Notes under the pieces: generated by a model
Databases searched by the model: none
Told to the model about the DNA's origin: nothing
Seen by the model: only the letters and a program-made list of their open reading frames with translations
Shown here: positions 8,295 to 53,980 of the stretch, piece after piece
How positions within the stretch are numbered: position 1 is the first letter of the stretch
Layout of the letters: each line of letters starts with the position of its first letter
Position numbers and translations under genes: made by a program
Source of the DNA: Candidatus Kaiserbacteria bacterium
Lineage (GTDB): Bacteria > Patescibacteriota > Minisyncoccia > Phycocordibacterales > UBA918
Direction: 5' to 3'
Assembly: GCA_031430855.1 (NCBI GenBank)
Contig: JANPCG010000004.1
Span: forward strand, 10,845 to 74,844
DNA length: 64,000 bases

Positions 8295-8406
8295 CCAAAA
8301 CGCACGCATCTACGTTGTTGCACTGCGGCAGTGGACGCTCACCGTACATCAGGTACGGCTCGTGCCCACTACCTGGCGCGCCTAGTAGCTGCATACGTTT
8401 TGAAAC
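8295..8406 (+). repeat. Intergenic repeat element copy A (CCGTAC-hairpin family), directly 3' of rpoC
   Basis: ccaaaacgcacgcatctacgttgttgc…caccgtacatcaggtacggctc…ctggcgcgcctagtagctgcatacgttttgaaac. It aligns end to end with the copy after rpoD and shares its core with the other copies. Confidence 0.8.
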
Positions 8407-8440
8407 CCTCTGAAGTTAGAACGTTAGAGTAAAATCTAAA

Positions 8441-8490
8441 ACAACAAACCGCTGACACCTTTAGGTGTCAGCGGTTTGTTGTGTATTTGA
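8441..8490. terminator. Strong bidirectional intrinsic terminator
   Basis: aacaacaaaccgctgacacc-ttta-ggtgtcagcggtttgttgtg perfect long hairpin, followed by tattt. Confidence 0.7.
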
Positions 8491-8509
8491 GAAAAGAGTG
8501 AGAATTTCG

Positions 8510-8529
8510 CACTATCATATATGATAGTG
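8510..8529. promoter_or_regulatory. Perfect 20-bp palindrome CACTATCATATATGATAGTG, a putative operator or protein-binding site (copy 1 of 2)
   Basis: Self-complementary 20-mer lying between two terminators. A 26-nt stretch (gcactatcatatatgatagtgRaatt) is identical to 52447..52472, upstream of atpD. Confidence 0.5.
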
Positions 8530-8555
8530 GAAATTTAAATAGTAAAAACGAAAAA

Positions 8556-8598
8556 CCGCCGATAGACTGGCGGATTTCCAGTTATCGGCGGCACACTG
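8556..8598 (-). terminator. Intrinsic terminator of the small minus-strand gene
   Basis: ccgccgata…ttatcggcgg inverted repeat immediately 3' of the minus-strand stop at 8602. Confidence 0.5.
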
Positions 8599-8601
8599 CC
8601 C

Positions 8602-8799
8602 TCATTGAGTTTTCAGATAGATCTCCAGGGCGAACATGATGTTGTCTTGAATCGTCTGGGTTATGGCCAAAAGCGCCAATACGACACCAACTGTTGCAGC
8701 AAGAAAGCGAACCCATGGAGCTTCGTTCTTGATCAATCCGCTTGCAAACATGCCAGCACAGGCTCCACTCATCCAAACGTAAATAAAAACGTACTCCAT
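8602..8799 (-). CDS. small hydrophobic (membrane) protein, 65 aa
   Basis: A GGAGGGA ribosome-binding site lies 7 nt upstream of the ATG. The product (MEYVFIYVWMSGACAGMFASGLIK…VVLALLAITQ) contains two predicted TM helices. The ORF is bounded by terminators. Confidence 0.4.
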   Translation of the reverse strand: MEYVFIYVWMSGACAGMFASGLIKNEAPWVRFLAATVGVVLALLAITQTIQDNIMFALEIYLKTQ

Positions 8800-8892
8800 T
8801 TAGGACTCCCTCCATAGCTTTCAAAATAGTATCACATATATTGTAATAAGTCAATGGTGTGTAAGCGGTGATAAAATTTTTGCGGTATACTA

Positions 8893-51128: not shown

Positions 51129-51140
51129 TAAAATACTACT

Positions 51141-52046
51141 GTGGCACTCAAACAAATTAAAAACAAAATAATTTCGACCAAGAAAACTGGTAAGGTAACC
51201 AAAGCCATGGAGGCGGTGTCGGCAGTTAAAATGCGCAAGAGTCAGGCGCGTGCCTTTGATAGTCGTCCGTATATACATGCGGCGATGCGGATTTTAGCGC
51301 GGCTTTCACAATCGGGGGATGTGACAACCCATCCACTTGCGCAAAAGCGAGATACTGCGAAGAAACTAGTGGTGATGGTCACGAGTGACAAAGGTCTAGC
51401 GGGGAGCGTTAATAGTGCCATTATTAAAACGGTTGAGATGATGGTGCGAGCAGGTGAGCAGTTTGACGTCATAACGATTGGTCGCAAAGCGACTGAGTTT
51501 GCTGCGCGAGCTAACCTCGCGAATCTTGGTCAATTCAATAATGTGAGCGATGACGTAACAGTTGCAGATGTATACGCCATGGCTGATGTAGCCTTATCTT
51601 CATACAAAGCCGCGGAAACTTACAGCAAAGTTGAGGTAATCTACCAGAACTTTATCTCAACGTTTGAACAAGAACCAACCATACGTCAAATTCTCCCCCT
51701 TGATCCTGCCGAAATTCACTACATCATGCAAGGTATCAAACCCAAGGTCGGGAAATTCAGTGACTCAGTTGTATCGGCAGATAACGTCATTAATTACGAA
51801 ATCGAACCAACCGCTTCCGCTGTGCTTGATGTCCTCATTCCACAGCTTGTCCAAATTATGCTTTTCCATGCCTTACTTGAGAGTAAGGCGTCCGAGCATA
51901 GCGCCCGTATGGTCGCTATGAAAAATGCCACCGACAAGAGTAAGGAAGTAACAAAGTTCCTAACGCTAAAATACAACAAAGCCCGCCAAGCTGCGATTAC
52001 GGCTGAGGTGGCTGAAATTACTGGCGGTATGGAGGCACTTAAGTAA
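51141..52046 (+). CDS. atpG: F0F1 ATP synthase subunit gamma
   Basis: N-terminal MALKQIKNKIISTKKTGKVTKAMEAVSAVKMRK and C-terminal …YNKARQAAITAEVAEITGGMEAL gamma signatures. Confidence 0.9.
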   Translation: MALKQIKNKIISTKKTGKVTKAMEAVSAVKMRKSQARAFDSRPYIHAAMRILARLSQSGDVTTHPLAQKRDTAKKLVVMVTSDKGLAGSVNSAIIKTVEMMVRAGEQFDVITIGRKATEFAARANLANLGQFNNVSDDVTVADVYAMADVALSSYKAAETYSKVEVIYQNFISTFEQEPTIRQILPLDPAEIHYIMQGIKPKVGKFSDSVVSADNVINYEIEPTASAVLDVLIPQLVQIMLFHALLESKASEHSARMVAMKNATDKSKEVTKFLTLKYNKARQAAITAEVAEITGGMEALK

Positions 52047-52050
52047 TAAT

Positions 52051-52374
52051 ATGAAAAATAAATCAACACAAACTCATATTTTTAATATAGTACTCGATGA
52101 CATGTATTTTTTTCATATCGCCGGACTGTCTACGTTGGCATGGATTTTTTCGACAATTCTCTTGATATTTATCTTAGGTAAAGAAGTAGTTGCACTATAT
52201 TTGATACTAGCTTTTACGTACCCAATTGCTTTAATAATTCAGTTGTTTCTTTTATATACAGTTTCGTATTTTAAGAAAAAAAATATGATGAACCAACTAA
52301 AATTTGCATCACTTTTGTCTATAGCCTGTTTGCCAATAGCGGTTCTCGTTTCTTACATAATGGTTTTCATGTAA
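52051..52374 (+). CDS. hypothetical small membrane protein inserted between atpG and atpD (AT-rich)
   Basis: 107-aa ORF with three hydrophobic segments. By eye it is markedly more AT-rich than the flanking atp genes. No ribosome-binding site. It breaks the conserved atpG-atpD adjacency. Confidence 0.4.
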   Translation: MKNKSTQTHIFNIVLDDMYFFHIAGLSTLAWIFSTILLIFILGKEVVALYLILAFTYPIALIIQLFLLYTVSYFKKKNMMNQLKFASLLSIACLPIAVLVSYIMVFM

Positions 52375-52447
52375 CGGTTGTAGTGCTTAGTAGTGAGTGT
52401 CCACCGAGGGCTTTCACTACTCAGTGGTACTGAGTCATTATTAAAAA

Positions 52448-52467
52448 GCACTATCATATATGATAGT
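52448..52467. promoter_or_regulatory. Perfect 20-bp palindrome CACTATCATATATGATAGTG (copy 2 of 2), 18 nt upstream of the atpD start
   Basis: The identical 26-mer occurs at 8509..8534. It is preceded by two hairpins (agtagtga…tcactact; actcagt-ggt-actgagt). Confidence 0.5.
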
Positions 52468-52485
52468 GAAATTATCAAAATTATT

Positions 52486-53868
52486 ATGAGTACAGAAACT
52501 AAAAACATAGGGAAGATTACGCAGATTGTCGGTCCAATTGTTGATGTACACTTTGCTGATGGTGTGCCGTCACTTTTGAATGCGCTGACTGTTGCAACAG
52601 AAGACGGTGGCACCATTACGCTTGAAGTTGCGCAACACGTAGGTCTTGATCGCGTGCGCGCGATTGCGATGGAGGACACTCAGGGGCTCACGCGCGGGAT
52701 GGAGGTGATTGATACCGGAGCGGCGATTTCGGTACCGGTCGGAGTAGAATCACTCGGTCGACTTTTTAACGTGCTCGGAAAGACACTCGATGGAAAGGGG
52801 GAGATCACATCAGCACCACTACGTGGTATTCACCAAGATGCTCCAGCGTTTACTGAACAATCAACCACCACCGAAGTATTTGAAACGGGAATTAAATCCG
52901 TCGACTTGCTCGCGCCATTTATTAAAGGAGGGAAGGTAGGGCTATTCGGTGGAGCGGGAGTAGGGAAGACCGTATTGATTCAGGAACTCATTCACAACGT
53001 AGCCTCAGAGCACGGTGGGTATTCAGTGTTTGCCGGAGTAGGGGAACGGGTGCGTGAAGGAAATGACTTGTACCACGAAATGAAGGACTCAGGCGTGTTG
53101 GATAAAACCGCGCTTGTATTCGGACAGATGAACGAAGTGCCGGGAGCACGCGCTCGTGTAGGACTCACGGGTCTTACGATGGCTGAAGCCCTTCGTGACG
53201 AAGGGGGGAAGGACGTACTATTCTTTATGGACAACGTATTTCGGTTTACCCAGGCGGGACAGGAAGTGTCTTCACTTCTCGGTCGCGTATCATCAGCGGT
53301 AGGGTACCAACCAACCTTGGCTGAAGAAATGGGTAAAATGCAGGAACGTATTACTTCAACGAAGAAAGGTTCAATTACCTCAATTCAAGCGGTGTATGTA
53401 CCTGCCGACGACTTGACCGACCCGGCGCCAGCAACTACCTTCTCGCACCTCGACTCAACCGTATCTCTGTCTCGTCAGCTAGCTAGTCTCGGAATCTATC
53501 CAGCGATTGACCCGCTTGAAAGTAACTCATCTGCGCTTGATCCAATGATTGTAGGTGAAGAGCACTACCGGGTAGCCCAGGGTGTGAAGTTGGTGCTGCA
53601 ACGCTACAAAGACCTCCAAGACATTATTGCGATTCTCGGTATTGAAGAATTATCTGAAGACGACAAAACAACTGTTTACCGAGCCCGAAAAATCCAACGC
53701 TTCATGAGTCAACCGTTCAGCGTGGCCGAAGTGTTTACCGGAACTCCTGGTAAATATGTATCTCTCGCTGAAACTATACGTGGCTTTGGAGAGATTCTTG
53801 ATGGTAAGCATGATGAGAAATCAGAACAAGCTTTTTATATGAAAGGCTCGATTGATGAAGTGGTGTAG
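52486..53868 (+). CDS. atpD: F0F1 ATP synthase subunit beta
   Basis: Walker [16 protein letters not shown]-like region (…[12 protein letters not shown]…), and identity throughout. The preferred start is 52486 ([11 protein letters not shown]…). Confidence 0.95.
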
Positions 53869-53874
53869 CAATAG

Positions 53875-53980
53875 TGGGCAATCTGCCTTGTTGTACTTCG
53901 CGAAATAACTTTCATCGTATAAAAATACGCCTCAAATGATTTCACTCGCACGCCTCGCATCTCACCCACTCTAGCTCCAC
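53875..53980 (+). repeat. Intergenic repeat element copy F, directly 3' of atpD
   Basis: …ctgccttgttgtacttcgcgaaataactttcatcgtataaaaatacgcctcaaatgatttcactcgcacgcctcgcatc… (CGTAT/ATACG variant of the core hairpin). Confidence 0.65.

Follow-up and report, generated by a model that had tools for sequence, protein, structure and literature searches.

What kind of element is the long hairpin repeat that recurs, about once every 4–5 kb, in a 64,000-nt stretch of a Candidatus Kaiserbacteria genome, and why do so many of its copies lie directly behind genes? The stretch (contig JANPCG010000004.1 of assembly GCA_031430855.1, forward-strand positions 10,845 to 74,844) is here called the window, meaning the whole of this DNA at its full length, and positions are counted from its first letter. 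The repeat unit is a non-coding imperfect palindrome of about 115–125 nt (112–136 nt as measured on family members). An earlier note had listed 13 copies and had offered a terminator, an RNA-processing element or a miniature mobile element as possible roles. We found that the copies belong to a family patchily distributed over at least nine phyla, that they mostly follow the orientation of the upstream gene with its stop codon at their 5′ edge, that each forms one long, covarying hairpin, and that this hairpin is more stable on the strand antisense to the gene.

Eleven of the window copies served to train a covariance model, R1, and scanning the window with it, filters off, gave 15 matches. 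These were the 13 copies listed before, with related sequence in every interval and each recovered by R1, together with one clear extra copy (20745–20858, minus strand, 69.4 bits) and one weak match (23319–23407, plus strand, 34 bits). Eight matches lay on the plus strand and seven on the minus strand, and the opposite strand of each locus scored only 13–19 bits, so that the orientation of the element is well defined. The strict motif CCGTAC-N3-8-GTACGG occurred four times in the window compared with none in 100 shuffles, and a 20-position family pattern eight times compared with none in shuffled sequence, which excludes a chance origin. The list needed correction at two places: the copy at 48590–48675, given as plus strand, actually lies on the minus strand (48577–48689 with R1), and the copy at 12440–12660 described as long is indeed a member, having its core only at 12545–12655 and its outer 3′ arm shifted to 12456–12469. 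The copies, with gene products sized in amino acids (aa), are as follows.

8294–8406, plus strand: copy directly after rpoC (stop codon 8286–8288), a long hairpin; R1 104.8 bits.
10684–10797, minus strand: degenerate copy, antisense to both of its plus-strand neighbours, with 47 nt between its 5′ end and the downstream start of the 466-aa gene; R1 50.3 bits.
12252–12365, plus strand: copy after the 466-aa gene (10844–12244); R1 93.1 bits.
12545–12655, minus strand: copy after the 697-aa gene (12659–14752, minus strand); R1 74.9 bits.
19601–19714, plus strand: copy after uppP/BacA, with the stop codon (19594–19596) within the basal stem; R1 108.9 bits.
20745–20858, minus strand: copy after hisS (stop codon 20871–20873); R1 69.4 bits.
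23319–23407, plus strand: weak, degenerate partial match and uncertain member, falling within an annotated methyltransferase-like open reading frame (ORF) on the minus strand; R1 34 bits over model positions 14–102.
26064–26172, plus strand: copy after an ABC-2 permease gene (stop codon 26060–26062); R1 87.4 bits.
32967–33078, plus strand: copy after a GH15 gene (stop codon 32956–32958); R1 106.8 bits.
36075–36187, minus strand: copy after a DEAD-box helicase gene (36196–37590, minus strand); R1 115.6 bits.
37612–37724, minus strand: copy belonging to the 5′ leader of the DEAD-box helicase gene, whose start is 22 nt away; R1 105.5 bits.
47984–48095, minus strand: copy in the atpB–atpE spacer, running antisense to the atp operon and with the atpE start 22 nt downstream; R1 100.6 bits.
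48384–48492, plus strand: copy directly after atpE (stop codon 48378–48380); R1 82.7 bits.
48577–48689, minus strand: copy antisense to the atp operon, 21 nt upstream of the atpF start; R1 77.9 bits.
53867–53978, plus strand: copy overlapping the atpD stop codon (53866–53868), before atpC, with a basal stem that reaches into the final atpD codons; R1 85.0 bits.

Ten of these 15 copies are located directly 3′ of a gene on the same strand, namely rpoC, the 466-aa and 697-aa genes, uppP, hisS, the genes for the ABC-2 permease, GH15 and the DEAD-box helicase, atpE and atpD. The earlier statement that the copies always take the orientation of the upstream gene is too strong. Three of the other five (10684, 47984 and 48577) run antisense to the genes on either side and have a start codon 47, 22 and 21 nt from their 5′ ends, and the last two are the copy in the helicase-gene 5′ leader and the match within the ORF on the opposite strand. 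The GC skew is positive over the whole window while the copies are split eight to seven between the strands, showing that their orientation follows transcription and not replication.

Scanning GTDB genomes (one genome per species) with the 20-position pattern, for which about nine chance matches were estimated in 596 Gb, gave at least 117 loci, all in metagenome-assembled genomes (MAGs) and from at least nine phyla; the family is hence not lineage-specific, as had been proposed. Among the matches listed, carriers within the Patescibacteria were Paceibacteria, Kaiserbacteria, Saccharibacteria, Zambryskibacteria and Azambacteria, with other carriers found in Desulfobacterales, Syntrophales, Desulfuromonadales, Myxococcota, Oligoflexia, Nitrospirota, Rokubacteria/Methylomirabilia, Gemmatimonadota and Rhodothermales and as a flavobacterium, Hyphomicrobiales, a gammaproteobacterium and a Clostridium MAG. 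Although the pattern puts no constraint on the flanks, these keep the same architecture everywhere, including a nearly invariant GTTG in the 5′ arm, and R1, although trained on the window, recovered 113 copies in 100 of the at least 117 loci, some of them with several per 8 kb. Two sequence types could be discerned: type A, with ..TCGTCACTGCGGCGTAC..GTACGCCTCATTCCTCAGGAC.., mostly in Desulfobacterota, Nitrospirota and Rokubacteria, and type B, with ..CTCACCGTAC..GTACGGCTCA.., mostly in Patescibacteria and including the window.

Over all loci, a same-strand ORF of at least 120 codons ends no more than 200 nt upstream in 102 of 129 copies, confirming beyond the window the proposed tie to gene 3′ ends in gene orientation. 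The stop codons of these ORFs peaked sharply at the 5′ edge of the element, and ends of opposite-strand ORFs gave no peak on its 3′ side. Counted from the GTTG anchor, the type A stop codon is found at −30 (TGA 22, TAG 7, TAA 2) and that of type B at −27 to −34 (TAA 17, TAG 11). The upstream genes are ordinary housekeeping genes, such as rpoC, hisS, uppP, atpE, atpD, nusG, rplK, lexA, lpxB, menA and tyrA, as well as others. At the 5′ edge of type A copies (L006–L122) the stop codon often lies within TGATG, ATGA, GTGA or TTGA, and an in-frame TAA is found 11 nt past the stop codon, at −19, in 26 of 59 type A copies; this would give mini-ORFs of three to four codons that overlap the stop codon, and may be a coincidence or may reflect translational coupling.

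Every window copy was predicted to fold as a single long rod-like hairpin of five to six helices. The apical stem, C(G/C)CGTAC and GTACG(G/C) around 4–5 nt, is conserved, and below this CCGTAC-N4-5-GTACGG hairpin follows a symmetric internal loop with (C)UCA on both sides. GTTG opposite CGCC(T) makes up a conserved internal loop, the helix GTTGCGC/GCGCGCC holding a nearly invariant U·G pair. The base of the hairpin has an outer stem varying in sequence from copy to copy and then a CTGC/GCAG-type helix, above which GTT is opposed to CTA in an internal loop; a variable helix joins the GTTGCGC/GCGCGCC helix to the (C)UCA loop, examples of it being GUGGACGC/GUGCCCAC, GGACAU/AUGUCC, AAGUUGC/GCAACUU and AAAAAUU/AAUUUUU. 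The basal stem usually includes the stop codon of the upstream gene, as in the rpoC copy, whose TAA has its pairing partner in a GTTAG located 3′ of the element. Minimum-energy folding of 89 copies gave 71 in which two or all three bases of the stop codon were paired to the hairpin's 3′ end, and this 3′ end covaries with the stop codon, TGA being found with TC and TAG with CTA.

The fold was evaluated on an R1-guided alignment of the 113 copies from 100 loci of other genomes; such a model-guided alignment was needed, as RNAalifold on a MAFFT alignment of 124 sequences gave the apical stem only. Paired cells reached 87.8% compared with 65.4% upon shuffling and 24–47% when the partner was slid by one to three columns, the covariation score was 0.511 compared with 0.128 (reached by none of 500 shuffles), and compensatory double changes were found in 21 of 26 pairs. 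The proposal of a structured repeat, to be probed with a covariance model and for covariation, was thereby borne out through the pairing kept among these copies, and the outer arms (CTGCG/GCAGC), which had been suggested to enclose the centre, do form such a stem, the whole unit being one hairpin with strong covariation. The A and T runs described as flanking the central GC stem in the manner of a terminator instead pair together as the variable helix, and are missing in GC-rich copies.

Relatives of these copies have been listed before. Aklujkar et al. (2009) annotated Gmet_R1001–R1024 of Geobacter metallireducens as 'predicted short RNA elements', 24 copies found by BLAST with a central palindrome GRCGTAGCGCTGCTACGCC, and also noted the same elements in G. 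sulfurreducens (GSU0160.1), G. uraniireducens and Desulfotalea psychrophila, with one Geobacter copy sitting between dapAB and the co-transcribed dapL (PMC2700814). That account consisted of an alignment by BLAST and a listing of the genes nearby, without structure or covariation, a link to stop codons, an occurrence outside a few Deltaproteobacteria or a function (PMC2700814). Seven Gmet sequences from its supplement aligned with locus L118 at 83–87% identity over 81–101 nt and with L116 at about 75–81%, and both of these loci are matched by the family pattern and by the window-trained R1 (30.3 and 42.5 bits). Direct alignment of window copies with Gmet sequences was weak (51–62 matches over 63–83 nt), and the family link therefore runs through R1. 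Judged from these sequence comparisons, Gmet_R1001–R1024 are of the same family as the window copies. They share ..CAATCTC.GCGTTG.., an apical GCGTA(G/C)C..G(C/G)TACGCC stem followed by TCC, and ..CGCCTTGA..TTGCGAAAAAT, as well as a length of 108–113 nt, a copy separating operon cistrons and an antisense strand that folds better; they differ in the apical stem, which is mostly GTAGC/GCTAC in Geobacter compared with GTAC/GTAC in the window family. The window copies represent a diverged subtype (type B) in Patescibacteria, about 10 times denser.

Searching the literature by keyword and by sequence string, we found no description other than in the Geobacter genome papers. Rfam 15 gave no gathering-level match in the window and, in E-value mode, no match at the position of an element in eight loci, while a 251-nt slice around one copy gave chance-level snoRNA matches only (11–17 bits). 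The earlier view that this is not a described class is thus right as regards Rfam 15 and wrong as regards the listing from 2009 (PMC2700814): the family is already known from Geobacter, without further characterisation, and what is new here includes the fixed and paired stop codon, the gene-following orientation, the patchy distribution and the better folding of the antisense strand. No family match was obtained in the PLSDB plasmids or the INPHARED phages. IMG/VR gave four matches (L132–L135) on two distinct contigs, each with one or two type A copies.

The atp operon bears directly on whether the element is a terminator. As stated before, it contains four copies, which we found to be two in sense and two in antisense orientation, three of them among atpB, atpE and atpF and one between atpD and atpC. 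Because copies sit inside this operon, the element is probably not a simple terminator, and termination, put forward previously as a possible role, found no support as its main one, with a terminator scan of the window at 46.5–55 kb also giving no call at any element. Several window copies do close transcription units (rpoC, convergent gene pairs), and the outer stem favours an A run on its 5′ arm (35:5) and a T run on its 3′ arm (34:7); since this is the layout of a bidirectional terminator, some terminator-like activity is possible. Apart from the family, the window has three occurrences of a short GC hairpin with the sequence GGAGGCAAGACCTCC or the complement of it (153–183, 23623–23650 and 39061–39095), and the last of these follows a 373-aa gene, is itself followed by TTCTTAGTTTT and resembles a conventional intrinsic terminator. 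With conventional terminators of GC hairpin and T run present, the genome does not rely on the long element for termination.

Comparison with related genomes gave evidence of gain, loss and replacement of copies. The closest relatives fetched were Patescibacteria MAGs. In one of them, L121, with an atpD product 96% identical to that of the window, the copies after atpE (2449–2562, 78.1 bits with R1), before atpF (2646–2757, 68.4 bits) and after atpD are shared and the atpB–atpE copy is lacking. In relatives the atpD–atpC spacer is 5–45 nt long and free of the element, and 80 metagenome loci with atpD products 67–91% identical held a single element in 470 kb. That one copy (L138), directly after the atpG stop codon in sense orientation, is an independent insertion in another lineage. 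The strain L002 is 99.6% identical to the window over 20 kb, but 96 nt of the post-GH15 copy (window 32962–33057) are there replaced by 132 nt of a different copy (L002 13861–13992), with three synonymous changes in the last eight codons of the GH15 gene and the right-hand breakpoint between CGCCTAG and CAGC. On sequence grounds this replacement looks like import of a diverged allele, and a donor sequence was not found for the replacement copy. Insertion into a pre-existing terminator hairpin, which might have accounted for the variable outer stems, was rejected, as the empty L121 and atpD–atpC sites show no hairpin. The idea of a mobile element at gene ends, also raised in the earlier note, hence stays alive through the empty orthologous sites and the independent atpG insertion, with neither a recurrent transposase within 3 kb nor a target duplication found to go with it.

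We tentatively favour the view that the family is a REP/ERIC-like non-autonomous hairpin that spreads horizontally, is kept at the ends of cistrons and acts at the RNA level; mobility, a trans-acting factor and an effect on RNA are the parts of it that we infer. Machinery provided in trans would spread the element both from genome to genome and inside each one, and only copies co-transcribed at a cistron's end would persist. At such an end the hairpin, once folded, may loop itself out of the interval from the stop codon to the following ribosome-binding site, and such a gene-end or intercistronic hairpin could then be a barrier to 3′ exonucleases and/or a substrate of RNase III type, rather than a simple terminator.

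Several observations weigh against this preferred view, and the folding advantage of the antisense strand is the main weakness of any interpretation based on sense RNA. The strand antisense to the upstream gene was more stable in all 14 window copies compared (−49.5 versus −32.7 kcal/mol with RNA parameters), and the same held for 107 of 124 when all copies were counted (p = 2e-17). On the sense strand, the helices of the model contain 104 C·A or A·C mismatches compared with 45 G·U pairs, and 224 pyrimidine–pyrimidine compared with 19 purine–purine mismatches, which is the opposite of what would be expected for a selected sense-strand RNA. As for mobility, no recurrent transposase, integrase or reverse transcriptase was found within 3 kb of the at least 117 loci, and flanking k-mers gave no sign of a target-site duplication, matching 17, 5 and 2 times for k = 3, 4 and 5 compared with 16.6, 6.3 and 1.6 in controls. 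In loci totalling about 1.4 Mb, no autonomous or split copies enclosing an ORF were found. Divergence among the copies of one genome is approximately that seen between genomes (mean identity at variable columns 0.57 versus 0.43), which gives no sign of a recent burst, and only 13 of 62 copies had their nearest neighbour in their own genome. To our knowledge, moreover, no DNA-level process targets stop codons.

The strand asymmetry held with DNA parameters for the same 14 window copies (antisense −23.1, sense −17.2), and fold z-scores in the window were −5.7 to −10.4 for antisense compared with 0 to −5 for sense (for instance −9.4 and −5.0 at 12252–12365; the antisense value at 20745–20858 was −10.4). 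Read on the antisense strand, the sense mismatches become G·U and G·A pairs, and the CUCA/CUCA loop a UGAG/UGAG tandem G·A motif. The asymmetry differs between the types: for type B the antisense strand was more stable in 52 of 53 copies, with 4.4 G·U pairs compared with 2.3 in sense (p = 2e-8), and for type A in 55 of 71, without G·U excess. The sole conserved wobble pair (U·G, 106 of 113 copies) belongs to the sense strand. Covariation of Watson–Crick pairs cannot by itself distinguish which strand is selected; the asymmetry of wobbles and mismatches points to the antisense strand in type B and is ambiguous in type A. Among recurring neighbours of the at least 117 loci, within the same 3 kb, only ABC ATPases and spurious high-GC ORFs formed clusters.

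A different account takes the antisense strand as the functional one, with its stable hairpin and short U run at the border of the ORF serving as a one-way terminator or insulator against antisense or convergent transcription, while sense transcription reads through its weaker and mismatched counterpart. Copies inside operons are compatible with such a function, which would also explain the greater antisense stability (14 of 14 in the window with either parameter set, 107 of 124 overall), the G·U excess on that strand in type B (4.4 versus 2.3) and arms with A and T runs (35:5 and 34:7) in the layout of a bidirectional terminator. We nevertheless hold it to be rather unlikely, since the copies at 10684, 47984 and 48577 put the strong hairpin into the sense RNA of their neighbours, two of them within the atp operon, and since seven of the ten canonical window sites have no converging gene; a T run of at least four is moreover found in only about a third of the copies and is itself paired, type A lacks the antisense G·U excess, the conserved U·G pair (106 of 113) is on the sense strand, and a terminator needs no core sequence conserved across phyla. 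Unlikely in our judgement is also a pure DNA-level selfish element or recombination site, for which antisense single-stranded DNA hairpins or cDNA would be substrates of an HUH nuclease, a tyrosine recombinase or a reverse transcriptase acting in trans, analogous to REP/RAYT, IS200/IS605 ends or integron attC sites, and for which the positions would be those where insertions are tolerated. Tolerance alone leaves the fixed stop-codon position unexplained, no bias with regard to replication strand was seen (eight plus and seven minus under a uniform GC skew), it is the apex and not the ends that is conserved, the reverse of attC, REPIN and MITE, and no recurrent recombinase, transposase or reverse transcriptase (3 kb, at least 117 loci), no attC boxes (0 of 34) and no target duplication were found. 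These points stand against a patchy distribution with empty and filled orthologous sites, replacement of a copy between near-identical strains, a bottom strand that folds better with DNA parameters too and few wobble intermediates in the covarying helices, all of which speak for such an element. We regard as improbable, too, a gene-end module common to the phyla, read by a conserved trans factor via the apex and the GTTG/CGCC and CTCA loops and installed at stop codons, being either a mobile element targeted by translation termination or a punctuation of gene-end transcripts, with the antisense strand (as RNA, cDNA or single-stranded DNA) as the active one.

The fixed position of the stop codon, its pairing in 71 of 89 copies and the covariation of the 3′ end with its identity would be natural for a translation-linked cis element, in which the terminating ribosome melts the basal stem and thereby tunes termination, release or stalling, or keeps coupling to the next cistron. 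Copies between operon cistrons lie about 20–60 nt before the next start and type A often has TGATG or ATGA at its 5′ edge, but the same anchoring is found at convergent gene ends without a following gene (12252, 12545 and 19601), a stop codon is missing beside four of the 14 clear window copies, close relatives manage without the element at the same sites and the stability of the antisense strand stays unexplained, which makes this account quite improbable. Even less probable, we believe, is that the element serves the upstream gene as an ordinary terminator, intrinsic or factor-dependent, as suggested initially: although copies follow stop codons directly, many have an A run before and a T run after the hairpin, and several in the window are at ends of transcription units (rpoC, convergent pairs), others are placed within the atp operon or between dapAB and dapL in Geobacter (PMC2700814), the scan called none, the sense hairpin is that of the weaker strand, GC-rich copies have no T run, and the genome has conventional terminators of GC hairpin and T run as well. 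That each copy would be an independent small RNA gene with its own promoter, for example for a regulatory RNA or a protein sponge, we consider very improbable indeed; the annotation in Geobacter was of this kind (PMC2700814) and conserved, covarying structure and loops would fit it, but no conserved promoter was seen beside the copies, many of which fill cistron spacers of 130–200 nt, and hundreds of diverged copies per Mb with positions tied to stop codons would be atypical.

Several known repeat systems resemble the family in part. ERIC/IRU of Enterobacteria and Vibrio and the Correia elements of Neisseria are imperfect palindromes of 100–160 bp in transcribed intergenic DNA, also within operons, which affect mRNA processing and stability, their hairpins being cut by RNase E or RNase III; each occurs in a single family or genus, and their ends are conserved, Correia having a TA target duplication. 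The present family is alike in size, in whole-length imperfect palindromy, in its transcribed intergenic location including operons, in occurring in either orientation and in being non-coding, and differs in having variable ends, a conserved apex, no target duplication, a spread over at least nine phyla and a 5′ edge at the stop codon. With blastn in distant mode, one window copy gave no match in 5,426 complete E. coli genomes, as a check of homology with ERIC. REP/BIME elements are species-specific and 20–40 nt long, have a GTAG conserved at the 5′ end and are linked to a RAYT gene, and REPINs have conserved arms around a varying centre; REPs at gene 3′ ends stabilise upstream mRNA and, within 15 nt of a stop codon, affect translation. 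In common with them the family consists of high-copy extragenic palindromes mostly at gene 3′ ends, whereas its unit of 112–136 nt, its distribution over at least nine phyla and the lack of a recurrent neighbouring protein family (3 kb, at least 117 loci) set it apart. MIRUs of mycobacteria are intercistronic, oriented with the operon and overlap the upstream stop codon with their ends, coupling to the next cistron having been proposed; they are direct, often tandem units of 40–100 bp containing small ORFs, found in mycobacteria only. The likeness lies in an intercistronic repeat with one end overlapping the upstream stop codon, the difference in that the family here is a long hairpin. RNase III sites of phage T7 likewise punctuate polycistronic RNA.

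Integron attC sites are imperfect palindromes of 57–141 nt in fixed orientation 3′ of ORFs, often with the stop codon inside, in which structure is more conserved than sequence and the bottom strand folds better. The palindrome 3′ of an ORF, the fixed orientation, the stop codon inside it, the greater conservation of structure than of sequence and a better-folding strand antisense to the gene are all shared with the present family, which differs in that its conserved part is apical, not terminal as in attC, and in showing no bias with regard to replication strand. An attC identity was rejected, as R″ (RYYYAAC) and R′ (GTTRRRY) were found in 0 of 34 elements (terminal 22 nt), no intI was nearby and the upstream genes are housekeeping genes. 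Three other candidates were also dismissed. A MITE, or miniature transposable element with inverted repeats, does not agree with outer stems that are self-complementary but differ in sequence by copy, with no target-site duplication and no recurrent transposase within 3 kb. The reverse-strand apex (GAGCCGTAC..GTACGGTGA) is similar to domain 5 (D5) of group II introns, but no Rfam intron match was obtained on either strand and there is neither a D5 bulge nor a distal helix, and we treat this resemblance as a coincidence. Recoding of SECIS or PYLIS type, in which a hairpin directly follows UGA or UAG, is not compatible with the use of all three stop codons, non-coding DNA downstream and ordinary genes upstream.

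Repeats of this dispersed, palindromic sort, REP, ERIC and Correia among them, normally do not extend beyond one genus or family. The same core and fold across phyla, placement at the stop codon to the exact nucleotide and a high density in the streamlined genome of a member of the candidate phyla radiation make an unusual combination, which points either to a broad system of mobilisation or recognition or to a general marking of gene ends. The latter, if real, would have been overlooked because the organisms are uncultured. The presence of the family in the tractable Geobacter metallireducens and G. sulfurreducens makes the question directly testable. In practical terms, the element fragments metagenome assemblies, yields spurious gene calls and merits a model of Rfam or Dfam type.

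Some additional features of individual copies and their surroundings may be mentioned. Gene callers annotate a 58-aa 'protein' that is the translation of the antisense copy upstream of atpE (47930–48106; 2314–2490 in L123), and several metagenome contigs with atpE (L125, L126 and L131) break within the element upstream of atpE. Between atpG and atpD the window has a 107-aa ORF (52051–52374); the corresponding spacer of L138, the single relative compared, instead has the stop-anchored element copy and no such ORF. A perfect 20-bp palindrome, GCACTATCATATATGATAGTG, occurs twice (8509–8529 and 52448–52468), in both cases intergenic, upstream of a 588-aa sigma-factor-like gene and of atpD, respectively, and resembles an operator or some other small repeat. 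The core (12545–12655) and the outer 3′ arm of the copy behind the 697-aa gene are kept apart by about 85 nt of inserted sequence (12456–12545), which itself contains small hairpins. The two copies flanking the DEAD-box helicase gene (36075–36187 and 37612–37724) have an identical core of about 75 nt and are 91% identical over 106 nt, with outer stems that are unrelated to each other, yet each self-complementary; this may be due to gene conversion between nearby cores or to a modular core, and the bracketing of an RNA helicase gene by two copies could reflect autoregulation. The coding region of the same helicase gene, finally, contains a tandem 30-nt duplication, 80% identical (37313–37372).

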